Shown here: one piece after another, positions 34,123-54,691 of the stretch | Position numbering within the stretch: position 1 is the first letter of the stretch | How the letters are laid out: each line of letters opens with the position of its first letter | Source: an uncultured Planctomycetaceae bacterium | GTDB lineage: Bacteria > Planctomycetota > Phycisphaerae > SM23-33 | Assembly: GCA_964536835.1 (NCBI GenBank) | Contig: CAZIAZ010000003.1 | Coordinates: forward strand, 6,103 to 70,102 | Length of the DNA: 64,000 nucleotides | Direction: 5' to 3' | The notes under the pieces: model-generated | What the model was told of the DNA's origin: nothing | Databases searched by the model: none | What the model saw: the letters and a program-made list of their open reading frames with translations, nothing else | Translations under genes and position numbers: made by a program

Positions 34123-35484
34123 TTAATCTTCATGGCCCGTCATAGCGGAAAGCTCACTGATTACGTAGCGGTATTTGCCCGATTTCGGAAGAGGGATGTC
34201 TTTGCAATATTCCACGGCGGCAATGCCGTCCGGGCCGAGGCGTTCGAGCATTTTTCGGCGGATTCTTTCGCCGGCGTCCCGGCTGAACTGTTCGTCGGTC
34301 ACGAGCATGATTTTTACGCTTCCGTCAGCCGCCTGCCGTACCTGGAATTTTACGACGCCTGGTTCGACTCTTATCATTGCGTGTACGGCTGAGCTGTGGA
34401 TTCGTCTGCCGTGCGGCGTTATTAGGAAGTCGTTGCATCTGCCCTGCACGACCTGCATGAGTTCCAGGCCGCGGCCGCAGCGGCATACGCCGGCTCGTAG
34501 CTGGCCGACGTCTTCCGTGCGATAGCGGATGAACGGCATGGCGTAATTGTCGAGCTGCGTTACGACTATTTCGCCGTCCTCGCCGGCAGTTGCAGCAGTG
34601 CCGTCGTTTCGCAAAATTTCCACAATCACGTTTTCACTCGTTATATGCATGCCGCCGTATGGGCATTGATGTGCGATAAATCCGGCTTCACGGCTGCCGT
34701 AGCCGTCGGCTACCGGCACGCCGCCGAAGGCGCGGCTGATAACTTCGCGCTGGTGTTCATATAAAACCTCAGCCGTCGAAAAAACGACTTTTACGCCGAT
34801 ATCGTCCAGCCGCAAACCAGCCCCTTCCGCCAGCATGCAAAGCAGATGCATCGAACTTGGATAGCCGAACACGCACGATGGCCTGAACCGCTTGAGTTTC
34901 TGAACGTATGCCGCGATGTTCTCTTCGCACAAATCGTAAGCCGCAAACAGCCGTTCGTTTATCAGCCAGTCCCGGAAATGTTTTAAACGGTCATTGCGGG
35001 AAAGTTCGATGGGTGAGTTCCACACGTAGGCTTCCCGCATGCCGTGGGAAATGCCGAACCATTCATGGCTGCGGATGCGGGCTGCTTTGTCCCAGGCCTG
35101 GCGGCGCCTGTCCATGTAAAAAATCAGCGGATAGCCCGACGACCCGCCGGTGCTCGATTTTATCACTCCGCCGCGAACGGTGCGATTCGTCAACTCCTCT
35201 CGATGCGAATTGAGCGTGAGCTTGTCCATGAGCGGCAGACGGCGGATGTCGTCCAGTGATGCGGGCCGCCACGATTTGTCCACGCCGGCGAATTTTGCAT
35301 AATATTCCGTATGTTCCAGCGCTGCGCCGACAAGCGAGCGGAGTTTTTCGAGCTGAATGTCACGAAGCTTCTGCGTCGTTAGCCATTGCGTTTTTTCCAT
35401 CTGCCGCGCAATACCGAACGTATTACGCCTCAGCGAGAATTCGAGAAGCGGCGATATGACTCTGCCGGCGATGAACGGTGTCAT
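34123..35484 (-). CDS. Phenylacetate-CoA ligase-like adenylate-forming enzyme (PaaK/CapK/F390-synthetase family)
   Basis: A 453-aa ORF with an SSGTTG-like motif (SSTGGSSGYP). It is the last gene of the polysaccharide operon, and its start overlaps the upstream GT gene by 4 nt. Confidence 0.7.
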   Translation of the reverse strand: MTPFIAGRVISPLLEFSLRRNTFGIARQMEKTQWLTTQKLRDIQLEKLRSLVGAALEHTEYYAKFAGVDKSWRPASLDDIRRLPLMDKLTLNSHREELTNRTVRGGVIKSSTGGSSGYPLIFYMDRRRQAWDKAARIRSHEWFGISHGMREAYVWNSPIELSRNDRLKHFRDWLINERLFAAYDLCEENIAAYVQKLKRFRPSCVFGYPSSMHLLCMLAEGAGLRLDDIGVKVVFSTAEVLYEHQREVISRAFGGVPVADGYGSREAGFIAHQCPYGGMHITSENVIVEILRNDGTAATAGEDGEIVVTQLDNYAMPFIRYRTEDVGQLRAGVCRCGRGLELMQVVQGRCNDFLITPHGRRIHSSAVHAMIRVEPGVVKFQVRQAADGSVKIMLVTDEQFSRDAGERIRRKMLERLGPDGIAAVEYCKDIPLPKSGKYRYVISELSAMTGHED

Positions 35485-37715
35485 TTTCCGGCTCCGAGCA
35501 GATTGTCGTATATTTTTATAAGGTCGTTCGTGACGACTTCGACCGAATATCTTTCAGCGACCCGTTGTCTGGCGCTGTTGGCCATATTTCGTCGCATTGC
35601 GGTGTCCTGCGAGAGTTTCAACATCGCTGCGGCGAGCGCGTTTACGTCGCCAGGCGCAACAAGGAGGCCGTCCGTGCCGTTACGCACTACCGACGGTATA
35701 TCGCCGACTGCCGTGGTGACGACGACGAGGCCGGCAGCCATGGCTTCGAGTATGGCCATTGGCTGGGCTTCGTTGTAACTCGGCAGGACGAAACCTTCAG
35801 CCGTCGTTATCGCTTCATATTTCGGATTGCCGCTGAGCAGGCCGGTGAGTGTCGCCTGTTTTTGAATGCCGAGTTCGTCAATCATATTCTGCAACTGTTT
35901 CATCTGGCCCTGTTGCGTTTCAATGCCGGCGATGTTTGCGCAGAGCGCGTTGCCGCCGTCGCGGGTGACGGCTAGTGCTTTTATAAGGTCGGCTGCACCT
36001 TTTCGGCGGCTGTAATTGCCCAGGAAAAGGAATTTCCCGCTGCCGCCGTCTGCGGTTTTTTCTGGGATTTTTACCCCGTTATGCACGACCAGCCATTTGA
36101 TGTTTTCGTCCGGCTGCAAGGCTGAATATTTCGACCTGAGCGTTTCGCCTAGCGTTATTACGCCGTCGGCGCGGCTGAGAATTTTTCCGGCTCGTCGCTT
36201 CATCATCCAGCCGAGTTCGCCCATAAACGAATCGAATCTTGCGCCGTGGATATGCAACAGAACTTTTGCGCCTGCTTGGCCGGCTGCCGCCGCCAGCCAC
36301 GCATCGCGCCAAAAGCTCATGCCGCTGCACGTGTGAATGTGACAGATGCAATTCTCCATCCGCCGTATATTTTTCAACATCTGCCGCCTGAGATTCCTTT
36401 GTGCGGCGAGGCCTCTGAAAATGGAACGATGCTGCGGCGTAAGTTTGCCGCTGTTTATGCCTCGCACGGTCATGCGATGTTCAAGCCCCTCGATGAGGGA
36501 TTCCGACACGCTTGTCATGCCGCCTTCGAGCGGCAGTGCCGGACTGACCATGACCACCCCATATTCGCAGTGTCGCGATATTTTCTGAAAATAGTCCATG
36601 TATGCACGCGTCATTACGGATGACGAATATTTTTCGAGCACTTTGCGTCTGCCGGCGAGGCCGACTTTTCGTCGCAGTTCCGAATCGACGCACATCAGTT
36701 CGATTGAGGCGGCGAGCATTTCCGGCTTAGCCGGCGGACAGAGCAGGCCGCAGTCGTCGCCGATTACCCGTGAAATGCCGCCGACGGCCGTCGCCACCGA
36801 AGGCAGGCCGGCAGACATGGCCTCCAGCAGAACCATCGGCAGACCTTCGCTGCGGCTGGACATGACAAATACGTCTGCCGCCGAATAATACGTGTCGATG
36901 TCCGCTTTCCCACCGACGAATTTCACCGTCTGGCCTAGGTTGGCATCGGCGAGCATGGCCTGCAACTGGCTGTAATACTTCTCATCCGCGATATTGCCTG
37001 CAACGATGAAACGTAATTTTTTTGGCAGATTTCGGCGGCTGAGGATTTGGGCTGCGGCGATGAGATCTTCGTAACCCTTTTCCGGTTTCACGTTACCGAC
37101 CGACAGCAGCATCATGTCGTCATTGTCTATGCCGAGTTCTTTTCTGAGGGCTGCGCCGCCGTCCCTGTTCACCCTTGCCGGTTCAATACCGTTTTCGATT
37201 ATTTTGACAATCGGCCGCAGTTGCAGGAGTTTCACATACGCACCGGCAACATCTCTGGAAACCGCAGTTACGCCGTCTACCTGCCGGCTGGCCCATAATT
37301 CATCGAATCTCGCGTGATTGCGGCCGCCAAGAAGGCCGTGACACGTCATTATTAACCGGCCGGCAAGCCCTTTGTTGGCCGCGCTGACGTAAACCAGCGA
37401 AGCTCGGTCATGTACGTTTATTACGTCGGGCCTGAAATTTTTCAGAAAACGCCTTATTCGAAGAATTGCGCGCATATCGAACCTGCGGCTGGAATCGATT
37501 TCCACGACGCATATGCCGCGGCTGGCGAGTTCCAGCCCCAGCGTGCCTGTGCGGCGAAGCGTGATGACCGCCACTTCACAGCCGCTGGCGGCCAGCCCCG
37601 ATGCCAGAAGAGCCACGACCCTCTCCTTGCCGCCTGAACACAATGTATCCACGACTAGAACCGCGCGAAGCGCGGCTTGCGAGCCGTCAGGCCGGCAGCG
37701 GATAAAGTCCGACAT
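35481..37715 (-). CDS. Tandem (fused) GT4 glycosyltransferase with two GT-B modules
   Basis: A 744-aa ORF. Both halves carry GT4 C-terminal motifs (SRSEGLPMVLLEAMSAGLP and PSYNEAQPMAILEAMAAGLVVV). The exact start is uncertain because it overlaps the upstream gene. Confidence 0.7.
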   Translation of the reverse strand: MSDFIRCRPDGSQAALRAVLVVDTLCSGGKERVVALLASGLAASGCEVAVITLRRTGTLGLELASRGICVVEIDSSRRFDMRAILRIRRFLKNFRPDVINVHDRASLVYVSAANKGLAGRLIMTCHGLLGGRNHARFDELWASRQVDGVTAVSRDVAGAYVKLLQLRPIVKIIENGIEPARVNRDGGAALRKELGIDNDDMMLLSVGNVKPEKGYEDLIAAAQILSRRNLPKKLRFIVAGNIADEKYYSQLQAMLADANLGQTVKFVGGKADIDTYYSAADVFVMSSRSEGLPMVLLEAMSAGLPSVATAVGGISRVIGDDCGLLCPPAKPEMLAASIELMCVDSELRRKVGLAGRRKVLEKYSSSVMTRAYMDYFQKISRHCEYGVVMVSPALPLEGGMTSVSESLIEGLEHRMTVRGINSGKLTPQHRSIFRGLAAQRNLRRQMLKNIRRMENCICHIHTCSGMSFWRDAWLAAAAGQAGAKVLLHIHGARFDSFMGELGWMMKRRAGKILSRADGVITLGETLRSKYSALQPDENIKWLVVHNGVKIPEKTADGGSGKFLFLGNYSRRKGAADLIKALAVTRDGGNALCANIAGIETQQGQMKQLQNMIDELGIQKQATLTGLLSGNPKYEAITTAEGFVLPSYNEAQPMAILEAMAAGLVVVTTAVGDIPSVVRNGTDGLLVAPGDVNALAAAMLKLSQDTAMRRNMANSARQRVAERYSVEVVTNDLIKIYDNLLGAGK

Positions 37716-39096
37716 TTTTCTTCTCCTTTTGTCTCATATCGCCCGTAGAAAGCGGATTCGCCGCCAGCGACAGTTCATTTTGCGTGACCCACCACAATGC
37801 CGTCGTCAGGACGCATATGGCGTAAACGTATTCGAAGCCGACCTGGCTGAGAAATGTGGCGCCGACGCAAAATGCGGCGACGGTGGCTTCTATCATTGCG
37901 GCGTAATGCCACGCCCAGCTGTTTTTGCCGTCCGGCAGACCCTTTTCCGTGAGTTTTCGTATCTTTCGCGTCATCAACAGTACGGATGTAAGCATCATTA
38001 CATAGAAAAACAGTCCTACGTAACCCGACCCTGCCATGGTGGTGAACCACACGCTGTGGGCTACGTGCGGATGGTCTTCTTCGTGAACCTGGTATTTGGG
38101 ATACTGTTTGATGAAAGGCGTCTGGCCGAGGCCTATGCCGAAGAGCGGATTTCTGTCAGCCATCTTTCTGGCGACCTGCCACGCCCATATGCGGCCCATA
38201 GCCGATTCATCCTGTTTGTACGACTTGATAGTCATATACCGCTCCAGCGTAGCCTGCGGTATTATCACGAGTGCTATCACCCCCAGCACGAGTGTGCCGA
38301 GAATCATTTTGATAAAGCCGAATTTTCGCCATAGCGTGATGGCGACGGCTATGCTCATGGCCAGCATGCCGCCGCGGCTTGCGCCGGAAATAATCGCCGG
38401 TATCGCCAGCAGTGCGGTGATTTTCAACCCTCGGCTGGCCCACTTGTGCTGAACTTCATACGATGCGAAAAGCAGCATCGGTATGCCCATCGCGATGAAA
38501 AGAGCCGTGTCGTTGTTGTCCATGCCCAGCGGGCCGCCGTTATGCGTTACGCCGCCGCCGCGAAGAAGAAACAGGCCCAGCCGGATGGCGTATATGCCCG
38601 GACACATCGCCAGAAGAATGACCATCTGCTTTAACTGCTCCTTTGTGCGGACAAGGCCGGTAATGAGCATCAGGGCGATGGCGATTTTCGTGAATTTCAG
38701 GACGAATTCCATTGCGGCTTGGCGGTTGGGCGAGAGATAACCGCATATCGTCATCCATATCCAGAACAGCAGAAACCACACAGCCGGCCCCTTGGGCCGC
38801 CACCACGGCAGAGGCGTTGTGAGCGTTCGCACAAGCATGCAGACCGCCGTGGCGAGCACGAAACGGTTTTCCTGTACCGATGAAGACCATACGAGCGACT
38901 GAGGTTTCATGAGGCTCAGCCAGCAATACGCCAGCAGCCCGTAATACGCATCCATCAGCGCAACAGGTATGCAACCCCAGCCAAGAAGTGTCATGAGTAT
39001 GTCGCGTATACCCATTTTTAAAATCCGCAAAGAAAATTCATTATTCCGTTTCAGAAATCCATACCGGCCAGGCCGGCGGAATCTACTGGCCTTCAT
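37687..39096 (-). CDS. O-antigen ligase / Wzy-like polymerase-family integral membrane protein
   Basis: The protein has about 10 predicted TM helices and a periplasmic loop of the WaaL/Wzy type. The start is probably internal (MGIRDIL...). Confidence 0.6.
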   Translation of the reverse strand: MKASRFRRPGRYGFLKRNNEFSLRILKMGIRDILMTLLGWGCIPVALMDAYYGLLAYCWLSLMKPQSLVWSSSVQENRFVLATAVCMLVRTLTTPLPWWRPKGPAVWFLLFWIWMTICGYLSPNRQAAMEFVLKFTKIAIALMLITGLVRTKEQLKQMVILLAMCPGIYAIRLGLFLLRGGGVTHNGGPLGMDNNDTALFIAMGIPMLLFASYEVQHKWASRGLKITALLAIPAIISGASRGGMLAMSIAVAITLWRKFGFIKMILGTLVLGVIALVIIPQATLERYMTIKSYKQDESAMGRIWAWQVARKMADRNPLFGIGLGQTPFIKQYPKYQVHEEDHPHVAHSVWFTTMAGSGYVGLFFYVMMLTSVLLMTRKIRKLTEKGLPDGKNSWAWHYAAMIEATVAAFCVGATFLSQVGFEYVYAICVLTTALWWVTQNELSLAANPLSTGDMRQKEKKNVGLYPLPA

Positions 39097-40264
39097 CCAG
39101 CAGGGCTGAGTATTTTTCTGGACATACCGCCTCCCTCAGCCGTGCCGCCACCATATGCCAGTTAAACGCTCTGCTTGCAAGCAGAGCTCTCGCCGACAGC
39201 TTCTGCCTGAGTGTGTCATTATACAGCAACTCCAGTATCGCCTGCGAGAGTTCTTTGGGATTTTCCCGCACTAATATGTCTTCGCCGTCTCTTACGTCAA
39301 TGCCTTCGACGGCCATGGGCGTCGCCGCCACAGCCGTGCCGCTGGCCCATGCCTCCAGGAGTTTGTTCTTTATTCCAGTGCCGGAGACCATCGGCAGACA
39401 TACCGCGTCGGCAGACCATAAAAAAGGTCTGACGTCGTCGACCGTGCCGGTTACCTGTACGTTGTAACCGTCTAACGCTAGTACATCTTCAACAGGATTT
39501 GCGCCTACGAGCTGTATCTGTACTTCGGGACATTTTTCGACAATGTACGGCAATATTTTTTTCACCAGGTATTCCGCAGCGAGGATATTGTTGATATTGT
39601 CCATTACGCCCAGAAACACCACTTTCGGCCGGCTTGGGGATTTTACGTATCCTGAGGGCCGTGCAAAATATTCAGCATCCACACCGTTCGACGAGACCAT
39701 GACCTCCGTCGCAGGGTTGCGCTCCTTGAAACTTGTGGCGTCATAATCCGAAACCAGTGTGAACATGTCAATCTTTTCGAGGAACATCTGTTCGTATCGC
39801 GGATAACGGGCGATGAAATTGACCTGTTGGAAAAATCGCTTGACGTTCATGCTGGTTATGTTCCGGCGGCGATATTCCAGAATCGGGTCGTCTATGAGGT
39901 CAGCCAGGACGTAGGGTGATTTTCTGGCTTCAGGTGAATATTGCAGAGTGCCCGGCCCGGCCAGCACTGTTACGTCGTAATACGGCGAATGGAAATCGAC
40001 AGCCTTGGCCAATGACTGTTCGAATATGAAAGGACTCATCATATAACGGCCGGGGCCTTTATCTTTCCGCTGACTGGAGTCAGTTGGGAGAAAAATCGCG
40101 CCGCTCTGTTCGAACATGCCGGCGAATTCCGTCTCAGGCGGAAAACTCGTCACCGCCACGGTATCGCCGAGTTGACATAACTCTTTTGCGATATTGAACA
40201 ATCTCAGCCACAGGCCGTTCGCAAGAGGCCATGGATACCGTGTTGTAACAAACATCCAACGCAT
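39083..40264 (-). CDS. GT4 glycosyltransferase
   Basis: A GT-B fold with a C-terminal EX7E-like region. The N-terminus is RWMFVTTRYPWPLANG. Confidence 0.75.
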   Translation of the reverse strand: MRWMFVTTRYPWPLANGLWLRLFNIAKELCQLGDTVAVTSFPPETEFAGMFEQSGAIFLPTDSSQRKDKGPGRYMMSPFIFEQSLAKAVDFHSPYYDVTVLAGPGTLQYSPEARKSPYVLADLIDDPILEYRRRNITSMNVKRFFQQVNFIARYPRYEQMFLEKIDMFTLVSDYDATSFKERNPATEVMVSSNGVDAEYFARPSGYVKSPSRPKVVFLGVMDNINNILAAEYLVKKILPYIVEKCPEVQIQLVGANPVEDVLALDGYNVQVTGTVDDVRPFLWSADAVCLPMVSGTGIKNKLLEAWASGTAVAATPMAVEGIDVRDGEDILVRENPKELSQAILELLYNDTLRQKLSARALLASRAFNWHMVAARLREAVCPEKYSALLDEGQ

Positions 40265-40275
40265 ATAGAATCAAC

Positions 40276-41424
40276 CTATTGCAGACGGTTCTGTTTTCTG
40301 CCGCACCTGTCCATGACACGGCCGGCTGTTTCTATTATCATGCCACTGTCTATGACGTCCATGCAGTTGGGCTTGATATCGCACGTGCGTCTGTAACACG
40401 GGCCGCATGGATGTGTGGAAACAATTTTTTCGCCGAGGCCGTAAAGTTCTATCTCCTGGGGGCACGTCGGGCCGAAGAGAACCACCAGCGGTATCCGGCG
40501 GGCAATTGCCACGTGCATGGCCAGCGTATCGCCGGTTATCAGCATGTCGCAACAGCTTATCAGTGCGACGAATTGTTTTTCTGAATTGTCGGATTGCGTT
40601 CTGAAGGCTTTGCCGCCCAGATGGTCGGCTATCCATTCCTTGTCCGTCTCTTCATCCGGGCCGCCCAGCAGGACTACCTGCCAGCCGATGTTTATCATGC
40701 GCCTGGCGATTTCGACCCACTTTTCCCGCGACGGAGCCTTGTTCGCGAATGTGCGGGATGAGCCCACGTTAAGCGCAATGACCGGCATGCCCGTGGTGCG
40801 GACAGTTACGAGCGTCTCGCGAGCCTGCCGTACGTCCTCTTCGCTGCAATACAGTTCATAAGGCGTATGGTCGTAATCAAGGCCGATGGCTTCATGTATG
40901 AGCTGAGGGTAGCTTTTGACGTTTTTGCGGAATTTAAGGTCGTCATCCACGCCGAGGCGGAAATAATATTCAGCCTCCTTGTTGGCGTATGTGGCCGTGC
41001 CGTACTCGCCTAGTATCATGCCGCGTTTGTCAGGCGAGTTGAGGGCATTGCAGAGGGCGGCTGGCTGGCGTTCTTTGTCGAGTGATAAAACCATGTCGAA
41101 TTTTTCGTAAAAAAGCGGAAACACGTTTTCGGCGTTGAACTCGAACAGACGGTCTATCATCGGATGGCCCTGGAGTATGCGTACGCCGTTGTCGCGGGAA
41201 ACCCATGTTATCTGAGAGTCAGGATATTTTTTTCTGAGCGTCGGCAGAAGACATGCCGTGCGAACCACGTCGCCCAGTGCGCCCAGCTTGATAATCAGTA
41301 TGCGTCTGCCGACCGGAGCGTAATGTTCGCAAGTGCAGACGGTTCGGAACTTGCAGGGCCTGTCGCCTATGAAATGCCGGCAATCGAATCTCAATTTATT
41401 TTTATCTGTCATCAATACTCGCAA
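40276..41424 (-). CDS. GT9 heptosyltransferase-family glycosyltransferase with an N-terminal Cys-rich extension
   Basis: The core ILIIKLGALGDVV...GPTCP is GT9 (ADP-heptose:LPS heptosyltransferase-like). The N-terminus is CRHFIGDRPCKFRTVCTCEHY. Confidence 0.7.
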   Translation of the reverse strand: MRVLMTDKNKLRFDCRHFIGDRPCKFRTVCTCEHYAPVGRRILIIKLGALGDVVRTACLLPTLRKKYPDSQITWVSRDNGVRILQGHPMIDRLFEFNAENVFPLFYEKFDMVLSLDKERQPAALCNALNSPDKRGMILGEYGTATYANKEAEYYFRLGVDDDLKFRKNVKSYPQLIHEAIGLDYDHTPYELYCSEEDVRQARETLVTVRTTGMPVIALNVGSSRTFANKAPSREKWVEIARRMINIGWQVVLLGGPDEETDKEWIADHLGGKAFRTQSDNSEKQFVALISCCDMLITGDTLAMHVAIARRIPLVVLFGPTCPQEIELYGLGEKIVSTHPCGPCYRRTCDIKPNCMDVIDSGMIIETAGRVMDRCGRKQNRLQ

Positions 41425-41427: not shown

Positions 41428-42549
41428 TCATTTCATTACCAGCGTTTCGACGGCGGTAACGTAATTTTCGACGCACCTGTTCCACGTGAACTCTTTTACC
41501 CGCGAAAGGCCTCTGTCGACGAGAGATTCCCGCAGGCTGGCATCGGCCATAATTCTTCTCATGGCATGTGTTATGGCGTCGGTATCCTGCGGGTCCACGA
41601 AGACAGCGGCATCGCCGGCAACTTCCGGCAGCGACGTGGCATTGCCGGCCAGTACCGGCGTACGGCAGGTGAATGCGTCCAGTATCGGCAAACCGAAGCC
41701 TTCATACAGCGATACGTAACAAAGGGCATCTGCGGCACTGAGGAGCGCAGATATATCCTCCTCCGGTGCGAAACCATGCAGAATGCAACTTTGCCGAATC
41801 CTGTAATCGTCGAGCAGCACGGAGAATTCCTGCATGGCCGGCTTGTTAAGGCCGACTATCAGCAGGCTGAATTCGTTTCTCAACTCAGCCGGCAGATTCT
41901 TCCATGCCTCGATGATTCGATGCGTATTTTTTCGTCCGTCGCGTGCACCGAACGACAGGAAAAAACGTCTGCCAGCCGGCAGTGCGTATTTTTCGCGAAT
42001 TTTAGTCAGTTCGGCGGCGTCTTCGATGAACCGGCAGCCGGTGTCCGGCGCCCAGTGATTCACTACAATTTTATCGGCAAAATCGCCGAATTCGTTGAGT
42101 ATCTGCTGCCTGGAAAATTCGCTCGGCGTAAAAACCAGTCGGGCCCGCTTAATGCCGCGAGCTACGTTTTTCCGCCACCATTTCGCGTATCTCCTGTCGG
42201 GACAGTGCATTGGAATGATATCGTGTACGGTCAGAATCATCGGAATCATCGGCAGATACGGAGAAACGTTAGCCGGGCAGTGCAGTACGTCGGCATTTAT
42301 CGCCCTGGCGAGCAGCGGCAGACGTACGTGCAGCCACACATTCCAGCGATCGCCGATGATTTCACCGGTTTTTTGTCGAATATTCGCAATACCTTCAAAA
42401 GGATTCGGCTCATGCCTGTCGCGATGAATCATGACGAATTCCCACGATGGCCGTGCCTTTGCCGCATACAAGTAAAGGTCTATAAGATTTTTTCCAGTCC
42501 CCCGACGATTTGCCGCAAAAATCGTCCTGGCATCGAGGGCTATTCTCAT
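41428..42549 (-). CDS. GT4 glycosyltransferase
   Basis: MRIALDARTI is the N-terminus. The GT4 C-terminal motif is SLYEGFGLPILDAFTCRTPV. Confidence 0.8.
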   Translation of the reverse strand: MRIALDARTIFAANRRGTGKNLIDLYLYAAKARPSWEFVMIHRDRHEPNPFEGIANIRQKTGEIIGDRWNVWLHVRLPLLARAINADVLHCPANVSPYLPMIPMILTVHDIIPMHCPDRRYAKWWRKNVARGIKRARLVFTPSEFSRQQILNEFGDFADKIVVNHWAPDTGCRFIEDAAELTKIREKYALPAGRRFFLSFGARDGRKNTHRIIEAWKNLPAELRNEFSLLIVGLNKPAMQEFSVLLDDYRIRQSCILHGFAPEEDISALLSAADALCYVSLYEGFGLPILDAFTCRTPVLAGNATSLPEVAGDAAVFVDPQDTDAITHAMRRIMADASLRESLVDRGLSRVKEFTWNRCVENYVTAVETLVMK

Positions 42550-46554: not shown

Positions 46555-47715
46555 TTACTTTCCGCCTTTCATGAGATGTTCGCAGATGAGTTCGATTTTT
46601 GCCGGCCATGTTTCGTCAATCATCGCCCGTGAATATTTTTGGCGCATCGCCGGCGAATCTTTTATCGCGGCGTCGATAGCCCGTTCAAATTCATCCGCGC
46701 CGCTCGCGAGCCGCACAAGGCCTTTTTCTGCGTATCGTCTGACTTCGGGCATGGGCGACGAAACCACCGGCAGGCCGGCTGCGAGGTATTCGCGAAGTTT
46801 TATAGGATTGGCGGCTGCGGTGAGCTCGTTCATTTGGAACGGTATTATGCCCACGTCGAAAGCGCGGCAGTATGCAGGCAGCTCTTTATAGCTTTTTCTG
46901 CCGAGGAAATGCATGTTGTGAAATTTTCGATATTCGTCAATATTCATATTGGCGTCGCCAATCAGCACAAACTGCCACTCAGTGCGGCGGCTGGCGATAA
47001 TCGCCAGCATTTTAATATCGACCCAGTCCCGCAGAAGGCCGAAAAACCCTATTCGCGGCTGCGGTATCTCTGCAACGTCGTGCGGCAGCGGCAGTGGGGC
47101 GTCGTCGTTTGCCGCCGCGGCGAAATGACTGTAATCGACGCCGTGTGGAACAAGCAGCGTATTGGGATTGTCTTTTATCCTGTCGTCGTAAAGATTCTGC
47201 GATGTGGCGACGACAAGGTCGCTACGGCGGCATAATGCCTGTTCGTCGCGTCTGACCTGGTTCGGGTCGTAGCCGGTAAAATGCGCAAAATCATCGACGC
47301 AATAATAGATGACCTTTTCCGGATGGAGCGAGTCGATGCAATATGCCACATCCGGCGCGAAAGACCACACATGGAGCGGCCTGCCGGCTGCGATTTGATG
47401 TACGGCGCGGCGTATCTGCCATCCGAGCAGTATCCGGTTGATTTTTTTTGCAGCCTTGCTGGCTGGAAACGGCAGAACCAGCGGCGTCAGAACGAAAAGA
47501 TTTTTTCGCATTTCCTTGATGCCGCCGAAAACCTGCGAAAGTTTTTTGAGGATGTAGCGTGCATCGTCAGCCGTCGCCGACGGCGTGCGGGAAGCGTGAT
47601 AGTTTACCCATAGTACCACGTTGTGTTCAGCCAGGATATGCGCCACGTGATGTTTGCTCGTCGGCGGGGCATCGTAACCGCTGGCGAAACAGACTATGAC
47701 TCGGTTTTCTATCAT
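46555..47715 (-). CDS. GT4 glycosyltransferase
   Basis: The true start is the ATG at 47715, which overlaps the upstream stop (ATGA). MIENRVIVCFASGYD... follows. It has a GT-B fold. Confidence 0.7.
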   Translation of the reverse strand: MIENRVIVCFASGYDAPPTSKHHVAHILAEHNVVLWVNYHASRTPSATADDARYILKKLSQVFGGIKEMRKNLFVLTPLVLPFPASKAAKKINRILLGWQIRRAVHQIAAGRPLHVWSFAPDVAYCIDSLHPEKVIYYCVDDFAHFTGYDPNQVRRDEQALCRRSDLVVATSQNLYDDRIKDNPNTLLVPHGVDYSHFAAAANDDAPLPLPHDVAEIPQPRIGFFGLLRDWVDIKMLAIIASRRTEWQFVLIGDANMNIDEYRKFHNMHFLGRKSYKELPAYCRAFDVGIIPFQMNELTAAANPIKLREYLAAGLPVVSSPMPEVRRYAEKGLVRLASGADEFERAIDAAIKDSPAMRQKYSRAMIDETWPAKIELICEHLMKGGK

Positions 47716-48896
47716 TCGACATCCTTGAGGCAGAGCGAGACAAAATCCTTCAGCCTCGCATGCCACGAATACTTCTCCAGAACGCACTGCCGGGCGGCAT
47801 AGCCCAGCATGTTTCGAACGTCTGCCTCCGAAAGTAAATATAACAATTTTTCGACCCATTGACCAGACGTTTCTGCAAGTTCCACGTCTTGGCCCTGCGT
47901 CACGTCCAGGCCGCTCATGGCTTGCGGGCTCACCACCACCGCCTTAGCCATGGACATTGCTTCAAGCACCTTGTTCTGTATGCCACGGCCGATATGCAGC
48001 GGACAGACGGATACTGCTGCCGCCTGAATGTACGGCCTTACGTCTACGACGTTGCCTGTGACCCGCACGCCTTCCATCATCGCCATGTCCCGCACGTTTT
48101 TTGAGGGATTTCGGCCGACGATGACGAAAATGGCGTTGTCGAATTTTTCGCGGATGCAGGGCAGGACTTCGGTTGCGAACCATTCGACGGCTTCGGCGTT
48201 GGGCCGGTAGTCCATCGAGCCGGTGAAGACCATTGCGTGTTCGCCCAGTCCCGTAATCGGCGACAGAAGCGACGGGTTGAAAAAATCTGCGTCCACGCCG
48301 TTGGCTGCCACGTGCAGATTGGGAATGCCGTCGCCTAGAATCTCAGCCTCTTCCCGCGATACCATCACCACGTCGTTACATTGCTCTACGCATTTTCTTT
48401 CCAGCCGCGCGACTCTGGATGATTCGATATTGAAAATCTTTTTCAGCGGCCAGGCTGTCCTGCATGCGTAGTCGGCCCACTTGGCCGAGTCGGCATCCAC
48501 AATGTCCATGATGCGTCTGGCGGCGTCGGCTTTCATTAGCAGGTTCAATACCGACGATGAATATCCCACGGCGACGTCGAACCGGCCGAGCCGTCTTATT
48601 TTCCGGCCCGCCATGCAGGATGAAAAATATCCTTCCGATACGCTCCTGCCCATGATGAAGGAACACGCGCCGCGGACGAGTGCGCTGCGACGGACTATGG
48701 GGAAGGTTTCAACGGCTGAACAGTATTCAGCGAGTTTTTTTGCGCTGGCGTAATCGTCGGCTCCTGCGCTGCCGGCGATTACGGTTACGTCAGAACCGTT
48801 TCGGGCCAGCTCGCATATTTCGTTGAACGCACGCACGCGTTCGCCCTTGTCGGGCGGGTACGGCATTCGATGCGCTATGTACAGCAGTCTCTTCAT
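47712..48896 (-). CDS. GT4 glycosyltransferase resembling the PEP-CTERM/EpsH1-system-associated sugar transferase family
   Basis: The N-terminus is RLLYIAHRMPYPPDKGERVRAFNEICELA. The YPP-KG-type start is characteristic of that family and is recalled from memory, not searched. Confidence 0.7.
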   Translation of the reverse strand: MKRLLYIAHRMPYPPDKGERVRAFNEICELARNGSDVTVIAGSAGADDYASAKKLAEYCSAVETFPIVRRSALVRGACSFIMGRSVSEGYFSSCMAGRKIRRLGRFDVAVGYSSSVLNLLMKADAARRIMDIVDADSAKWADYACRTAWPLKKIFNIESSRVARLERKCVEQCNDVVMVSREEAEILGDGIPNLHVAANGVDADFFNPSLLSPITGLGEHAMVFTGSMDYRPNAEAVEWFATEVLPCIREKFDNAIFVIVGRNPSKNVRDMAMMEGVRVTGNVVDVRPYIQAAAVSVCPLHIGRGIQNKVLEAMSMAKAVVVSPQAMSGLDVTQGQDVELAETSGQWVEKLLYLLSEADVRNMLGYAARQCVLEKYSWHARLKDFVSLCLKDVE

Positions 48897-48929: not shown

Positions 48930-49988
48930 TTATGGTATCCATCTGGTGACGATGCCGCCGGCTATTCGCGTGGCGAAGAGCGGCATGTGTCGCCAGATTT
49001 TGATGGCTAATGAAAAACCGCTGTTGCCCGGACTCAGATTGGGCAGTGTCGTCGAGCGGTTCAACGCTATCTGGTAATGCAGTTGCGATGGCTCGAAACC
49101 CATATGTCGTTTGAATGCGTAAGGGCCGGAGTTGTTTCGGCGGGTACGGTTGAAGTCGAACTGTCGCAGGCCCTGTTTGACGGCGTATTCCATAAGCGAA
49201 ACGTACATTACGTTGTTTGCTCCGAGTTTCATGCCGCGCGGCAGTGAGCCGGAGAAGTAGGCTACCATCGTGTCGCGGAATATGAACGACACGACGCCGG
49301 CTAGCATTTTATCGCCTTCGAAAACGCCCAGCGTCACGCAGTTTTTGCCGTAATTGTTTTTCAACTCACGCCAGAGAGACCTGCTGTAATTCGGCGAACC
49401 CAGCCGTCGCAGCGTATAAGCGTACAAGTCGTATACGTCGTCCATGAGTTCGTCGCCGATGCGCGGCTGAAGGATTTTGAGGCCGTTGCGTGTCGCCGCC
49501 CGCGCCTTTTTGGGCAGACCTTTGAGTACGTCGTCAGGGTCAGCCGGCAGCGATTTTATAAACGTATCGTAGCGGGCTATTACCGGTAAATCGAGATGCG
49601 AGGGCGATACGTTGCGAAGTTCGAGATATGCCGCACCGTGTTCGACGCTGATTTCGCGGGCTTTTTCGAAGAGCAGCCTTTCCGTGTCTTCGTCGTCGGC
49701 TAAAATGCCGCCGTATGTCGCATATGGAATTGAAACGAGAATTTTGCCTTCAAAAATGCTTTTTACTAAAAACAGCGGAAGAACGCCGGCTAAACTGCCG
49801 TCGCTTTTTTTTGCCGCCAGATGCAGCGGCGCATGACGGTAGGTCTTTTGGACTGCGAGCGACCACGCCGGCTGGTGAAAAACAGTCCCGTCCCGATGCG
49901 CGAGAACGTAATCGTCCCAGGCGGCGATGTCGTCGTCTCGCAAAAAATCCGCACAGCCGTCTGGTTGACCGTTCAAATGAGTGCTCAC
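48930..49988 (-). CDS. FemAB-family (GNAT-fold) protein of the type associated with EPS/PEP-CTERM loci
   Basis: A 352-aa ORF with two GNAT-like halves. The LKGLPKKARAATRNGLK motif is similar to FemAB. Confidence 0.55.
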   Translation of the reverse strand: MSTHLNGQPDGCADFLRDDDIAAWDDYVLAHRDGTVFHQPAWSLAVQKTYRHAPLHLAAKKSDGSLAGVLPLFLVKSIFEGKILVSIPYATYGGILADDEDTERLLFEKAREISVEHGAAYLELRNVSPSHLDLPVIARYDTFIKSLPADPDDVLKGLPKKARAATRNGLKILQPRIGDELMDDVYDLYAYTLRRLGSPNYSRSLWRELKNNYGKNCVTLGVFEGDKMLAGVVSFIFRDTMVAYFSGSLPRGMKLGANNVMYVSLMEYAVKQGLRQFDFNRTRRNNSGPYAFKRHMGFEPSQLHYQIALNRSTTLPNLSPGNSGFSLAIKIWRHMPLFATRIAGGIVTRWIP

Positions 49989-49992: not shown

Positions 49993-51924
49993 TCAATATC
50001 TGTATACGTTGCCTGGAAGAAAGTGTCGCCTGTCCGTCAGCACAAGGCCGGCGAGTTTGACGTTGGCGGCGTTTAGTAGTCGTATGGATTTTAGTACCGA
50101 CTCCCGCTTGGTGCGGTTCATGCGTACTACAAGCAGTGCTTCGCCGGTTGCCAGGCCGAGCATGCCAACGTCGGAAAAGCTGTTTATCGGCGGCGTGTCT
50201 ATAATCACGTAATCGTACAGTCGCCGCAGGTCGGTCACGAATTCCATTAGGTCGGGCCCTCCGACGAGTTCGCCGACTTCGTTCGGATGAGCCTTGCCGG
50301 CGGGAATGAAAAACATGTTCGGATAAGCCGTCGGTTGGGTTACGTCCTTTATGGTGGCTGCCCCGCGCAACACTTCAGCTGCGCCAGGGGAACGGCGGCC
50401 TTTGAGGTAGCGTGATATCGCACCTTTGCGAAGGTCGCAGTCGACGACTATTGTCTTGTAATCCAGCCGCTCTATCATGACCAGCGCCAGGTTCAGACAC
50501 GTCAGCGTTTTGCCGTCGCCGGTTTCAGGTGAAGTTATGAGATAGCAGAACCGCTCGTCCGTTGCCGTCGCAAGCAGGGAGGTACGCAACGCGCGAAACT
50601 CCTCGGTAATCGGGCCGCCGCGATCCTTATGCGCAATGAGCAGGTCGGACATGTGAAGCTTGTTGTCTATCTGGTCTATTGAACGTTGTTTGGCGGTCGG
50701 CCTGGCTGCCGACATGGCCGACAGGACGCCCTGCGGCGTTATGTGATCCTGGGACAACTCATATATGGGCGTACGCTGCGGTGTTTTTACCGGTTCGGGC
50801 GGAGTGACGATGTGATAACCGGGCTGAAAATCCACGGTTTCATCGTCTTCCGGCGACGATTCCTGCAGCGAAGGCTTATCGCCGAGTGAAGGCAGATCGC
50901 TCTGGGCGATATCCTTCGATGCGCGGTCGAGTTCTTCTTCAATATCCTTGAGATTTATGACTTCATCGCTCGACGGCGGCGGAGTAGTTTTGTCCATGTG
51001 AACGAAGACCGGCTCGGAGGCGGCGGTATCGTCCGTGGTAGCGGCGGCAGGTTGCGGCGTTAAGGGGTGTTCTTCCTGCGGCGGCTTAGCCTCAGTCGGC
51101 GGAGCGCCGAAATCCCACAAAGAGGCTTCCTTGAGAACGTCCGTCATTAACTCGTGACTTATCTCTGTGACTTTACGGGTATAACCGGTAAGCAGTGCGT
51201 TATCGCAAAGCACGTTTATAAGGCGAGGAATGCCCTGGGTGGCGAAATATATGTCCTCTTTAGCCTGGGCTGAAAATTTTGCCAGGCAGCCTTCGCCGGA
51301 CGCTATTTTTAAACGATAATCTATATATGCCGAAACATCATCCCTGGACATGTGGCCAAGGTTATACGTCAATACTATTCTCTGGCGGAACGATTCCCAC
51401 TGCGGTTCGAGCATACGGTTGCGAAGCTCCGGCTGGCCGACCAGGATTATCTGCAACAGCCGCTGGCCGTTACGCTCCCAGTTCGCCAATAATCGTATTT
51501 CTCGCAACGTGTCATCCGGCAGATCCTGTGCTTCATCCAGCAGCAGCGCCACGAGACGGCCTCGCTGATGCGCCCTGGCCAGATGTCTTTCTATGTTTTC
51601 GAGAAGCGATATCTTGTCCTGGGTCGGGTCTATCCTCATGCCCAGCTGCACGGCAAGGCCGCGCACGAGCTGTTTGCCGGATTGCGGCGGATTCTGCATG
51701 TTGACGGCTATGCAGTTGCCGGCCAGACGGCTTATCAGCATGTTGACAAGAAAAGTTTTGCCCGTGCCGACGTCGCCGGTTATCAGGACCATGCCTTTGT
51801 GGCTCTGGACGGTGTATATCATGTTGGCCAGAGTCTCGGAGTGAACCGCGCTTTCATAAAAGAACCGCTCGTCGCACGTCAGTGCGAACGGGAATTCTTT
51901 CAGCCTGTAAAATTCCAGATACAT
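49993..51924 (-). CDS. Fusion protein: ExeA/GspA-like AAA ATPase (N-terminal) plus bacterial tyrosine (BY) kinase catalytic domain (C-terminal)
   Basis: The N-terminus is FPFALTCDERFFYESAVHSETL...ITGDVGTGKTF (ExeA-type). A Pro-rich linker follows. The C-terminus has a Walker A' (SPETGDGKT), VVDCDLRKG, a Walker B (DYVIIDTPP) and ends ...GNVYRY. Confidence 0.75.
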   Translation of the reverse strand: MYLEFYRLKEFPFALTCDERFFYESAVHSETLANMIYTVQSHKGMVLITGDVGTGKTFLVNMLISRLAGNCIAVNMQNPPQSGKQLVRGLAVQLGMRIDPTQDKISLLENIERHLARAHQRGRLVALLLDEAQDLPDDTLREIRLLANWERNGQRLLQIILVGQPELRNRMLEPQWESFRQRIVLTYNLGHMSRDDVSAYIDYRLKIASGEGCLAKFSAQAKEDIYFATQGIPRLINVLCDNALLTGYTRKVTEISHELMTDVLKEASLWDFGAPPTEAKPPQEEHPLTPQPAAATTDDTAASEPVFVHMDKTTPPPSSDEVINLKDIEEELDRASKDIAQSDLPSLGDKPSLQESSPEDDETVDFQPGYHIVTPPEPVKTPQRTPIYELSQDHITPQGVLSAMSAARPTAKQRSIDQIDNKLHMSDLLIAHKDRGGPITEEFRALRTSLLATATDERFCYLITSPETGDGKTLTCLNLALVMIERLDYKTIVVDCDLRKGAISRYLKGRRSPGAAEVLRGAATIKDVTQPTAYPNMFFIPAGKAHPNEVGELVGGPDLMEFVTDLRRLYDYVIIDTPPINSFSDVGMLGLATGEALLVVRMNRTKRESVLKSIRLLNAANVKLAGLVLTDRRHFLPGNVYRY

Positions 51925-51935: not shown

Positions 51936-53606
51936 TCAGTTCATTGTCTTTTCAATTTTGTGTTGTATGAATTCTATCGGCGACGAATTCCATCGTGCGT
52001 ATTCATCCGGCTCCTGCAGCCACAAAACGGTGCTGTACGTGGAGACGGCGATGGCGGCAAGCAGTACAAGGGCGACTGCCGGCTCAATCAGCCATGTAGA
52101 GAATTTTCTGCGAGCCTTGACCGACGGCGGTATTATTTCGCTTATCACGCCGTAGACCGGCAGATTGAATATGCGAGCAGCCTCTTCAGGCGTTGAAACG
52201 GTACGGTCAAGTTTGTATAACAGGAAAATTACGGCCATGCCGAATGCAATGCCGCCGACGAATGCGAAAGCGAAAATCATGAGTATGTTCGGCGACGACG
52301 GGCCCAGCGGCACTTCCGCGCGGTTTATTTCGCTCAGCAGCGTGCGACGCTTGGAAACCTCGGCAGCCAGGATGTCCTTGACGTTTTTGACCTGCCGGTC
52401 CCAGTAATCGTAATCGTTGCGTTTGGACTGCCAGTCTTCCATTAGCTGGCCGTAAATCTTTTTGCCCTCGACGTAGCTTTCCTGGGCGGCTTCGAAGCCC
52501 TTGAGCTGCGTTGTGGCGAGAGTCAGGTTCGCCTTTATCTGTTCTATTTCTTCCTGTTTGCCGGCTGCCATCGCCGCGAATGACTGCAAACCCACACCCT
52601 GCGAATAAATTTTCTGTACCACGATTTCCGCCGGCGTACGCTTTATGCGGTCTTCCATCATCTTTATGCTGGCCTGGAGGGATTTGACGACGGGATGCTC
52701 GTCGGTCATGTGATCCAGAACCCTGGCGGTCTCAAGCTGGTTGCGATAATTCTGCAAATCCTTGTCCATCTGCGCCAGTTCGGGATTGGGGCCGTAAATG
52801 ACCTGCGAGGGCGAGTTGTTCGAATCGCTCTCTTCACGAGCCTTCATGAGTTTGGCGTATTCTTTCTGGGCGAGCATGAGCTGGCTTTCCAGGGCGGCTT
52901 TTTTGGCTTTGGTCTCCTGGATGTGTTGAAGTATGACAATCGGCGTGCCCATGGTAATGCCGACGTTTTTCTGCTCAAAGTCGCCGCGTTTTTCGTTGAT
53001 GATGGAGTAATCTTTTTCAGCCTGCTGTTTGCGGCTTATGAGATAGTCGAGGCTGTCCTGCAATCGGGTGCGGATGCTCTGGCTGATGTTGTTTATATAG
53101 ATTTTGATAAGTTCGTTGGGAACTTTGGCGGCTAGAAGGGGGTCGGTGGCTTTATATGCGACGATGACGTAGTCGACGTTCTGCGAGCGGACCTCGAATT
53201 CGATGGAAATGTTTTTCTTCATGTTGTCGATGAGCTGCTGACGTTCACGACGGCCTTTGTTGGTAAGTTGGCCGGTGTCGTATTCCCGTTCCAGCGGCTT
53301 TATAAGGCCGTCGGCTTCGAGTTCGTCGACAAGCTGTTCCATCGCGCTTTGCGTAATAAAATCCTGCGGGAGAGTCTTTTTGATTGTATCGAACGATTCG
53401 CTGCTTTTATCGTTGGTTTGCTGCGTGGCCACGTCACTGCGGCGTTCGAATACGGCACTGGAGGTGTATTTTTTCGGCATTACCCGCTGGGCGACCTGCA
53501 GGGCTATGATGCAGAAAAGCGCTGCGCAGAGCAGACATACCCTGCGGTATTTCATGAATACCCGCAGAATTTCGTTAAACGAAATGGATGTCGTCTGTTC
53601 CGGCAT
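51936..53606 (-). CDS. Polysaccharide chain-length determinant protein (Wzz/GumC-like)
   Basis: It has an N-terminal TM, a long periplasmic coiled-coil region and a C-terminal TM (MIFAFAFVGGIAFGMAVIFLL). Confidence 0.75.
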   Translation of the reverse strand: MPEQTTSISFNEILRVFMKYRRVCLLCAALFCIIALQVAQRVMPKKYTSSAVFERRSDVATQQTNDKSSESFDTIKKTLPQDFITQSAMEQLVDELEADGLIKPLEREYDTGQLTNKGRRERQQLIDNMKKNISIEFEVRSQNVDYVIVAYKATDPLLAAKVPNELIKIYINNISQSIRTRLQDSLDYLISRKQQAEKDYSIINEKRGDFEQKNVGITMGTPIVILQHIQETKAKKAALESQLMLAQKEYAKLMKAREESDSNNSPSQVIYGPNPELAQMDKDLQNYRNQLETARVLDHMTDEHPVVKSLQASIKMMEDRIKRTPAEIVVQKIYSQGVGLQSFAAMAAGKQEEIEQIKANLTLATTQLKGFEAAQESYVEGKKIYGQLMEDWQSKRNDYDYWDRQVKNVKDILAAEVSKRRTLLSEINRAEVPLGPSSPNILMIFAFAFVGGIAFGMAVIFLLYKLDRTVSTPEEAARIFNLPVYGVISEIIPPSVKARRKFSTWLIEPAVALVLLAAIAVSTYSTVLWLQEPDEYARWNSSPIEFIQHKIEKTMN

Positions 53607-53620
53607 ATATCACCGCGTGT

Positions 53621-54478
53621 TTATTGGCCTCCGCCGCCTCCGCCGCTGACCCATACGCCGTTGTCGTATGACGGGTCAAAGATGGCTCGAATGTCCCATA
53701 TGCCCTGCCTGGTTGCATCGAGCGGCGAAACAGCGTTCCATATCTTCCTGCCGACTGCTATGCACGGGTCGGGCTGAACGTAGACGACGTCGTTGGGCAT
53801 CAGGATGATGTTGTTCGACATGTCGCCGTATTTCGCCATCGCCATGATGTTTATTACCATTTTCTTTCTCGGCGACATTGGCCGTTCCCTGCGGACGCCT
53901 CTGTAATAATATCCCTTATCGTATTCGCTGCCCTGCTCCACTCCGCCGGACTGCGGCGAGTCGCCGCGTACGATTATTATACGCTCAGACCATGACTCCG
54001 GCGTCAGGCCGGCTTGCGCGACGGCGTCGAGGACGGTATCGCGACCGGTCCACTTTTTTGGGCCGGGATTTTTAACCTCACCCATGACGTAGTATCGCTG
54101 GGAGTCAAAACGCATGACGTCGACGTTAACAGTGGCTTCGGAGTAGTATTTCTCCGCAGCCCGCAGAATGTCACGCTCTATTTCATGCACGGTTTTGCCG
54201 GCGACGAATATTTCGCCGATGAGCGGCACATTTATCTTGCCGTCGGGCATGACGAGTATCTGCATGCCGCGCTTGCCCAGTTCCGGCCGAAATTCCCGCA
54301 TGTTGTCGGAACTGATGAGCAGCAGGTCGGGCGGATATACGCGATATTCAGGCGTAGCCACAGGGGTACGCGGCTCCGGCAGAAATTTGTTGACGGATTT
54401 CGCGTTATAACAGCCCGCTGCGAATGACAGCATTACACAAATCGCAATCGCAGCCAGATTTTTACAAGCAACACGCAT
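53621..54478 (-). CDS. Wza-like polysaccharide export outer-membrane lipoprotein (Poly_export plus SLBB)
   Basis: The start is at the MRVACKNLAAIAICVMLSFAAGC lipobox. The YRVYPPDLLLIS...MPDGKINVPLIGEIFVAGKTVHEIE pattern is Poly_export. This is the first gene of the operon. Confidence 0.8.
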   Translation of the reverse strand: MRVACKNLAAIAICVMLSFAAGCYNAKSVNKFLPEPRTPVATPEYRVYPPDLLLISSDNMREFRPELGKRGMQILVMPDGKINVPLIGEIFVAGKTVHEIERDILRAAEKYYSEATVNVDVMRFDSQRYYVMGEVKNPGPKKWTGRDTVLDAVAQAGLTPESWSERIIIVRGDSPQSGGVEQGSEYDKGYYYRGVRRERPMSPRKKMVINIMAMAKYGDMSNNIILMPNDVVYVQPDPCIAVGRKIWNAVSPLDATRQGIWDIRAIFDPSYDNGVWVSGGGGGGQ

Positions 54479-54691
54479 CAAATTGTCGTAAACTCCATAT
54501 CCGCATATCCTTACGCAATTACACCAACCGTGTTTCAGGGCTGACAGTCTTGCAAAAATATCCTCCGTGTGCCCAAAGCACATGGATACACTTAATCCGT
54601 ATCGGCATTTTCAGACAATAAAGCTCAGCCTTTTTGACGTTTTTATCCCAAAAAAAATTCATTAATAGCCGGAATACTTTTTCATAAGCAC

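Follow-up and report, generated by a model that had tools for sequence, protein, structure and literature searches.

In the present analysis, we describe a gene cluster for exopolysaccharide (EPS) synthesis and export that lies on a 64-kb stretch of contig CAZIAZ010000003.1 (hereafter the window) from an uncultured Planctomycetaceae bacterium. Read as open reading frames (ORFs), the cluster consists of 15 genes, all intact and all on the minus strand, between positions 34123 and 54583, and it probably forms a single operon. A first-pass annotation of the same DNA had counted 16 genes, but its own gene list also sums to 15. The tight packing that it had described is real. Indeed, when the junctions were computed after adjusting the start codons to public gene calls, they appeared as short overlaps, as directly abutting ends or as small gaps: four are 4-nt overlaps (stp1 with the following glycosyltransferase, Wzx with a GT4 gene, two GT4 genes with each other, and the tandem GT4 with CapK), one is 0 nt, two are overlaps of 14 and 29 nt, and the others are gaps of 3–35 nt. 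The 29-nt overlap, between the Wzy and tandem GT4 genes, is conserved in the sister locus L146 (loci collected from other genomes carry L numbers). The start corrections taken from the public gene calls concern Wza (285 aa, end at 54478), a TuaH-like glycosyltransferase (386 aa) and the next GT4 protein (414 aa). A terminator-like hairpin followed by a T-run (34036..34049, minus strand), a weak candidate from a consensus scan only, lies 74 nt past the CapK stop codon and is the probable end of the operon. The operon genes are identical in independent NCBI (metagenome-assembled genomes labelled ‘Phycisphaerae bacterium’), ENA and JGI assemblies, which, combined with the same 3′ half in L146 and the collinear locus L018, argues that the operon is real and stable. 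Note that public annotation already assigns most of the family names to these genes.

All family assignments were made with Pfam and with curated NCBIfam cut-offs. The first gene of the operon (53621..54478, minus strand) encodes an OPX (outer-membrane polysaccharide export) protein of the Wza type with 285 aa, identified by PF02563 (54.9 bits, cut-off 28) and SLBB_2 (37.6 bits), for which the PEP-CTERM-type export model TIGR03027 is the second-ranked NCBIfam match with 62.8 bits, under its cut-off of 180. Its start is most likely an internal Met giving the 285 aa, the full ORF reaching 54583, and the resulting N-terminus MRVACKNLAAIAICVMLSFAAGC resembles a lipoprotein signal peptide. The second gene (51936..53606, minus strand) encodes a polysaccharide co-polymerase (PCP) of the Wzz-like type, with 556 aa and no kinase domain. 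Its top match is TIGR03007, the chain length determinant of the XrtA system (94.4 bits, under the cut-off of 278.85), and Pfam Wzz follows with 23 bits, slightly under cut-off, so that the assignment is based on these two sub-threshold matches and on the conserved position of the gene. The third gene (49993..51924, minus strand) encodes a 643-aa fusion of an ExeA/GspA-like ATPase (AAA_22, residues 1–266) and a BY-kinase (residues ~430–630), joined by a Pro/Thr/Glu-rich linker of ~160 aa. The top match of the ATPase half is TIGR03015 with 239.2 bits, under the cut-off of 324.5. The kinase half passes TIGR01007 (112.8 bits, cut-off 108.05), has TIGR03018 as its second-ranked match (123.7 bits, under 230.65) and matches PDB structures of CapB, BceF, Wzc and VpsO at 58–89 bits. 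In this half, the Walker A, A′ and B motifs are readable and the C-terminus carries a YRY motif, suggesting that the kinase is probably active. An assembly artefact as the origin of the fusion was ruled out by an identical 643-aa ORF in the independent JGI assembly and by an 85%-identical homologue of 644 aa. The fusion also recurs in L015, in L018 and in proteins labelled Myxococcales; it is real and not unique, and it argues that the TIGR03015-type ATPase works together with the BY-kinase.

The genes that follow encode the assembly of the polymer. A FemAB-family protein with a GNAT fold (48930..49988, minus strand) belongs to the XrtA/PEP-CTERM-associated subfamily, passing TIGR03019 (299.2 bits, cut-off 260.35) with a PF13480 match of 50.8 bits. 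It weakly matches aminoacyl-tRNA-dependent peptide synthases in PDB (9wqy, E = 2.5e-4), and GenBank calls its relatives ‘FemAB family XrtA/PEP-CTERM system-associated protein’. Next comes a GT4 glycosyltransferase of the stp1 type (47712..48896, minus strand) with an N-terminal YPPDKG motif, which passes TIGR03087 (370.4 bits, cut-off 316.65) and is named ‘TIGR03087 family PEP-CTERM/XrtA system glycosyltransferase’ in GenBank. It is followed by the TuaH-like GT-B glycosyltransferase of 386 aa (46555..47715, minus strand; PF13692 and PF00534, with NF047676 TuaH at 89.6 bits, below cut-off) and by a Wzx-type flippase of 523 aa with ~10 predicted transmembrane (TM) segments (44983..46554, minus strand; PF13440 Polysacc_synt_3, 36.6 bits, cut-off 23). 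The next minus-strand genes encode a 414-aa member of the GT4 family, recognisable as such by its N-terminal GT4 domain only (43742..44986; PF13579, 55.7 bits, and PF13439, 46.2 bits), two GT4 glycosyltransferases (42546..43709 and 41428..42549; PF00534, 97.3 and 111 bits, respectively) and a GT9 enzyme of the heptosyltransferase family (40276..41424; PF01075, 90.5 bits, cut-off 22, with TIGR02193 and TIGR02195 below cut-off). The GT9 enzyme is extended at both ends by Cys-rich segments (N-terminal C-x8-C-x5-C-x-C; C-x2-C-x5-C-x5-C close to the C-terminus), which suggest a metal-binding site. A second and divergent stp1-like GT4 (39083..40264, minus strand) matches TIGR03087 over its C-terminal half only (165.8 bits, below cut-off).

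The only polymerase or ligase candidate of the operon is a Wzy_C-family membrane protein (37687..39096, minus strand), which passes both TIGR03097, ‘putative O-glycosylation ligase, exosortase A system-associated’ (219 bits, cut-off 188.1), and PF04932 (70.1 bits, cut-off 31.7). It is followed by a tandem double GT4 of 744 aa (35481..37715, minus strand; PF00534 and PF13439 twice each, TIGR03088 stp2 at 238.5 bits, below cut-off), which has an orthologue of 745–748 aa at the equivalent position in L006 and L146. The final gene of the operon (34123..35484, minus strand) encodes a CapK/PaaK-like adenylate-forming ligase, with NF045666 at 123.9 bits (below cut-off), PF27533 CapK_C in the public annotation and PDB matches to PaaK-like ligases at ~89 bits. 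Nine glycosyltransferase domains are thus encoded in the operon: stp1, the stp1-like enzyme, four other GT4-type enzymes, the two of the tandem GT4 and the GT9.

The Pfam and NCBIfam scans, which had been proposed as a check, reproduced every family assignment of the first-pass annotation. Its claim of a Wzx/Wzy-dependent EPS operon was borne out by the presence of OPX, PCP, BY-kinase and Wzx, together with a Wzy_C protein and a large number of glycosyltransferases; moreover, Wzx, Wzy_C, OPX and BY-kinase are encoded together, each passing a family cut-off. The accessory set of exosortase loci, which it had also recognised, is likewise present, since TIGR03019, TIGR03087 and TIGR03097 all pass their curated cut-offs. 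Four further XrtA-specific models (TIGR03027, TIGR03007, TIGR03018 and TIGR03015) rank as top or second match, all under cut-off.

We then consider which genes are absent, within a scope that comprises the 64-kb window and ~12 kb of flank from other assemblies of the species (loci L056 and L060; ~10 kb on the right and ~2 kb on the left), that is, ~76 kb of a multi-megabase genome. No exosortase (TIGR02602/PF09721; XrtA is TIGR03109) was matched by NCBIfam or Pfam among all large ORFs of the window, nor by tblastn and phmmer with two exosortase seeds in the window, nor, in six-frame translations of the window and its flank loci, by a hidden Markov model (HMM) built from nine exosortase sequences; over 1.85 Mb of collected sequence, the same HMM recovered just its nine source sequences. 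Family scans and tblastn/phmmer found in the window no EpsI, TIGR03108 amidotransferase, TIGR03006 deacetylase, TIGR03013 sugar transferase or PrsK/R/T, and seed proteins from two canonical XrtA loci gave chance matches only. A C-terminal regular expression for PEP-CTERM tails found none in the window and recovered 3/3 in the control pDV locus. Scans for a priming phosphoglycosyl transferase (PF02397 Bac_transf, PF00953, WecA-type) had no match in the window, and the flanks beyond it hold nothing relevant. The earlier statement that no exosortase, PEP-CTERM protein or priming transferase lies in the window thus holds, as family scans, tail patterns, tblastn/phmmer and the exosortase HMM all agree.

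Several candidates for these genes were considered and rejected. A Bac_transf remnant between Wza and the divergent gene upstream of it gave chance tblastn matches only (E ≥ 0.9). Neither the unassigned ORFs of the window nor the multi-TM ORFs of 46 related loci hide an exosortase or a priming transferase: the only finds were Wzx, MBOAT, transporters and cytochrome oxidase, and PF09721 matched the two positive controls alone. The ORF at 7749-8285, viewed as a degenerate PEP-CTERM substrate, has neither a PEP motif nor a TIGR02595 match, and the tail of its homologue also has no PEP motif. In the literature, nothing specific was found on exosortase or PEP-CTERM in Phycisphaerae.

Using an alignment of FemAB to scan one genome per GTDB species, we obtained 46 loci, all but one labelled Planctomycetota, in which FemAB is 35–61% identical to that of the window; the counts below refer to these loci plus L006 (47 loci), and the FemAB-centred views reach 10 kb on each side. 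The core module recurs in the 46 GTDB species loci, and its order, Wza-PCP-(ATPase)-kinase-FemAB-stp1-(TuaH-like glycosyltransferase), is conserved across them. Wza was found in 38 of the 47 loci, the PCP (placed between Wza and the kinase) in 39, the BY-kinase in 40, stp1 in 39 and the ATPase in 29, with TuaH-like homologues coming after stp1 in 22; most of the absences result from contig ends that cut the loci short. The ATPase and the kinase are separate genes in most related loci, the ATPase is divergent and upstream of Wza in one sub-group, and the glycosyltransferase sets differ among the loci. Seven of the 47 loci (L006, L021, L024, L025, L027, L029 and L031) have a PglC-like Bac_transf of 218 aa, which adjoins Wza or is found up to ~6 kb upstream. 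In addition, L014, L021, L023, L025, L027 and L031 show, just upstream of Wza, arrays of genes that encode PEP-CTERM tails. Eight of the nine PEP-CTERM-tail ORFs tested scored 17.8–28.2 bits with TIGR02595 (cut-off 16), and the PEP-CTERM genes of L013 were detected by pattern alone. Note that these arrays (e.g., L014:73-3745 and L023:2-5104) comprise two to five paralogues, with common tails of which IPEP[LV]TM.G.FLGV..LGGY[LI][RK][KR]R is an example.

Because the views centred on FemAB stop 10 kb downstream, the search was repeated with CapK, the last gene of the operon. In metagenome contigs, CapK homologues adjoin a TIGR03108-like amidotransferase (at least 20 loci), a FemAB-stp1 pair (11 loci) or an exosortase (7 loci). 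Four high-GC, planctomycete-like contigs (L066, L068, L073 and L078) carry a CapK 54–56% identical to that of the window with an exosortase 3′ of it, immediately in two of them and within ~5 kb in the other two. The view that exosortase is never linked to the module in Planctomycetota, which had come from the 10-kb FemAB views, is overturned by this CapK-centred scan. The exosortases in question are exosortase-EpsI fusions of 560–640 aa (L066:8993-10912, L068:16517-18196, L073:9066-10802 and L078:3956-5641), which score 110–128 bits with TIGR02602 (cut-off 105.55) and, in the fused EpsI part, 55–67 bits with TIGR02914 (cut-off 42.8). The best subfamily model is XrtD with 223–235 bits, under its cut-off of 400, and XrtW and XrtA also remain below theirs, so these fusions may represent an undescribed exosortase subfamily. 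Each of them is followed by a giant PrsT-like TPR protein of 1000–1650 aa. In the fuller contigs, a TIGR03108-like amidotransferase lies upstream (814.7 bits, cut-off 816.9), GT4 genes lie upstream of CapK, and the TIGR03015-like ATPase of L068 scores 238.9 bits, matching the score of the window domain. The window contains neither the exosortase-EpsI fusion, nor the PrsT-like TPR protein, nor the TIGR03108-like amidotransferase of these loci.

The CapK proteins of these four exosortase contigs are 71–76% identical to the CapK proteins P0281 and P0292, encoded on the contigs of L009 and L023, respectively, which are labelled Planctomycetota and also carry the FemAB module. This likeness leads us to infer that some Planctomycetota possess one single long operon that would run from Wza to the exosortase. 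Together, the PEP-CTERM genes beside Wza and the exosortase-EpsI fusions after CapK indicate that the tie of the EPS module to protein sorting is real in this phylum, for which 12 PEP-CTERM proteins and an EpsH homologue were already reported in Rhodopirellula (PMC1569441). A different arrangement of these accessory genes was observed in a further group of metagenome contigs (L100, L111, L127, L132, L136, L138-L140 and L143-L145), where CapK, ~45–49% identical to that of the window, lies upstream of and close to FemAB-stp1.

The nearest relatives of the window show its own, exosortase-less layout. L146 has a CapK 82% identical to that of the window and the same half of the operon from Wzx through Wzy and the tandem GT4 to CapK, followed by unrelated genes; L147 has a CapK 60% identical and ends with CapK, a deacetylase and WecB; and L018 is collinear from Wza to Wzy, shares the ATPase-kinase fusion, has a PAS/PP2C gene upstream and, within 10 kb, encodes neither a priming transferase nor a PEP-CTERM protein. 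That these three loci share the reduced layout indicates a trimmed architecture that is conserved and not an accident of one assembly, and its maintenance at 40–82% protein identity implies purifying selection.

Two canonical XrtA loci served for comparison, as annotated, both examples of the EpsH-type EPS loci known from Proteobacteria and Desulfobacterota: that of N. vulgaris Hildenborough pDV (DVU_RS16060-16155) and that of Vibrio alfacsensis pYa108 (Haft et al. 2006, PMC1569441). Homologues of Wza, the PCP, the BY-kinase (as a separate protein), FemAB (35% identical to that of the window in both the Vibrio and the Nitratidesulfovibrio loci) and the TIGR03097-type/O-antigen-ligase-family protein occur in both, and many GT4 enzymes are common to the window and these loci. 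In addition, pDV has homologues of the ATPase and of Wzx and a gene order (Wza-PCP-kinase-ATPase-...-FemAB) similar to that of the window, and the Vibrio locus has stp1 (31% identity). In contrast to the window, both canonical loci contain a TIGR03013 priming transferase, the XrtA-system deacetylase (TIGR03006) and an exosortase, the latter with EpsI in pDV or with the TIGR03108 amidotransferase in Vibrio, and pDV also contains a TIGR03016 outer-membrane protein, PrsT-/PrsR-like regulators and PEP-CTERM genes. Conversely, the ATPase of the window is fused to the kinase, unlike in canonical XrtA loci.

The combination of OPX, PCP, BY-kinase and Wzx/Wzy logic is also that of the Wza-Wzb-Wzc systems for group 1 capsule and colanic acid in E. 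coli. The window differs from them by the fusion of the kinase to an ExeA-like ATPase, by an operon without a Wzb-type phosphatase and by a tyrosine cluster reduced to YRY. Its PCP is split from the kinase, like the CapA/CapB pairs of Firmicutes and unlike Wzc of E. coli.

Altogether, we consider that the region is, with a probability of roughly 80%, a single operon that makes and exports a complex heteropolysaccharide, extracellular or capsular, by the Wzx/Wzy-dependent route and that belongs to the planctomycete branch of the XrtA-type family. The best reading of its layout is a reduced one, which ends at CapK and in which the priming genes and any sorting genes are unlinked. Instead of representing a novel type of system, it adds a planctomycete, reduced example to the XrtA-type EPS family. 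Following the established Wzx/Wzy and Wza-Wzc logic, a phosphoglycosyl transferase encoded elsewhere would prime undecaprenyl phosphate, a role that the 218-aa PglC-like Bac_transf beside Wza would fill in relatives. The nine glycosyltransferase domains would then build a large branched repeat unit, as their family membership predicts, to which FemAB, with its aminoacyl-transferase fold, and the CapK/PaaK-like adenylating enzyme might, more speculatively, add an amino-acid or acyl substituent. Wzx would flip the repeat unit over the inner membrane, and the single Wzy_C/TIGR03097 protein would polymerise it under the control of the PCP and the ATPase-fused BY-kinase, which would govern export as well. 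Finally, the Wza-like protein with its lipoprotein-like signal peptide would carry the polymer through the outer membrane.

Several points weigh against this interpretation. The export protein, the PCP, the ATPase and the kinase all remain under the cut-offs of the XrtA-specific models; no exosortase or PEP-CTERM gene occurs in the window, in its flanks or in the three nearest relatives; and no priming transferase lies within ~76 kb, so that the pathway is incomplete as seen. For the last point, it should be noticed that O-antigen clusters of E. coli depend on a distant wecA, and a Wzx/Wzy cluster missing its priming transferase is thus ordinary and unremarkable. In addition, Wzy_C might function as a ligase or an oligosaccharyltransferase instead of a polymerase, and what we propose for FemAB and CapK is guesswork from fold or family.

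The first-pass annotation had proposed that the missing genes either are encoded elsewhere or mark the locus as a divergent variant, and the relatives sharpen this alternative and do not decide it. We lean towards an exosortase and PEP-CTERM substrates elsewhere in the genome, with the polymer of the operon as their matrix, at somewhat better than even odds. The lineage could instead be without any exosortase or PEP-CTERM protein, the operon making an autonomous EPS in which FemAB, stp1, TIGR03097, the TIGR03015-like ATPase and CapK would serve polysaccharide synthesis and export purely. This would fit the window and its extra flank, where exosortase, EpsI, amidotransferase, PrsT and PEP-CTERM tails are all lacking, and the nearest relatives L146, L018 and L147, which likewise have none in view. 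It would also agree with the observation that EpsH alone is confined to genomes with PEP-CTERM proteins and that homologues of the EPS-type families occur elsewhere (Haft 2006, PMC1569441). However, the view spans only ~76 kb of a multi-megabase genome, other Planctomycetota with the module do have PEP-CTERM genes by Wza and exosortase-EpsI fusions after CapK, and the PEP-CTERM proteins and EpsH homologue of Rhodopirellula point in the same direction, which together make an autonomous system the less probable of the two. Tentatively, and with no greater likelihood, the lineage, comprising the window species and L146 and, in all probability, also L018 and L147, would have lost the sorting arm and kept an intact, selected XrtA-type EPS module.

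Two other explanations concern the nature of the operon itself. In the first, the cluster would serve lipopolysaccharide (LPS) O-antigen/core synthesis or protein O-glycosylation, and the Wzy_C/TIGR03097 protein, as a ligase of the WaaL or PglL type, would hand an undecaprenyl-linked oligosaccharide over to lipid A-core or surface proteins. This reading is brought to mind by the name of TIGR03097 (a putative O-glycosylation ligase), by the GT9 heptosyltransferase-family enzyme, by the single Wzy_C protein and by the LptD-like gene immediately downstream. We regard it as improbable: OPX, PCP and BY-kinase genes head the operon, and these are hallmarks of capsule or EPS export in Wza-Wzc systems and not of O-antigen ligation, while the LptD-like gene is separated from CapK by the terminator-like site and is not conserved as a neighbour in L146 or L147. 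Far less probable still is that an XrtA-type locus, formerly complete, is decaying here and no longer functions. As decay would have it, the fuller planctomycete and proteobacterial loci do have a priming transferase, a deacetylase, an amidotransferase and an exosortase that are missing here, but all 15 ORFs are undisrupted and tightly coupled, several independent assemblies carry them in identical form, the catalytic motifs of the ATPase and the kinase are intact, and the purifying selection implied by L018, L146 and L147 runs counter to a loss of function.

Co-occurrence has so far been the only ground for assigning functions to the FemAB-like protein, stp1, the ‘O-glycosylation ligase’, the ExeA-like ATPase and CapK, the accessory proteins of exosortase loci. 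If the sorting arm was lost in this lineage, FemAB-TIGR03019, stp1, TIGR03097, the TIGR03015-type ATPase and CapK would be polysaccharide-assembly and not protein-sorting factors, and the lineage would constitute a natural experiment that splits the two halves of the PEP-CTERM system. More generally, Planctomycetota have their own conserved version of the module, with or without linked PEP-CTERM genes and exosortase, and these variants, together with the ATPase-kinase fusion, provide comparative handles for distinguishing polymer-assembly from protein-sorting components. For the window itself, the outcome is mainly a sound annotation, and the missing genes may simply be elsewhere in the genome.

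Some neighbouring genes deserve mention. Divergent from the operon, a PAS - PP2C (SpoIIE) phosphatase - HATPase_c_2 protein (54905..57001, plus strand; PF07228 120.4 bits, PAS_9, HATPase_c_2) and a STAS-domain protein (57385-57723, plus strand; called in L056) form a partner-switching-type module. A homologue of the PAS-PP2C protein (43% identical) lies upstream of Wza in L018, and these genes may, tentatively, regulate the operon. On the other side, the LptD-like gene (30831-33977, minus strand; PF04453 25 bits) encodes an outer-membrane protein of 1048 aa with a long low-complexity N-terminal region. Most other ORFs of the window encode housekeeping functions, namely RimO, Tex, CysG/HemD, RpoD, enolase, DapF, ABC-F, two HtrA proteases, PflA, NrdD/NrdG, CyaB and a Nudix hydrolase. 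Between enolase and DapF, two minus-strand ORFs (16941-18206, 421 aa, and 18936-20588, 550 aa) have no Pfam or NCBIfam match.

The ORF at 7749-8285 (plus strand), rejected above as a PEP-CTERM substrate, encodes an orphan Cys-rich secreted protein of 178 aa with a signal peptide, a C-terminal TM segment followed by RRR, and the conserved cytoplasmic tail GYVFERITVSRRRSIYQ. It has a single homologue among 1.84 billion representatives (P0250, 31% identity), in which the tail motif GY[IV]FERIT..RR is kept. Finally, a second sugar cluster occupies 979-7545 (plus strand) and encodes a DegT/PseC-like aminotransferase, a 699-aa protein resembling heparinase II/III, a GT4 of the WcaI/stp3 type (146 bits with TIGR04063), a protein of 317 aa that weakly matches Acetyltransf_6 (FemAB-like), and WecB. 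Since homologues of DegT and WecB occur in or beside the EPS operon of pDV and L147, this second cluster may feed or complement the main operon.

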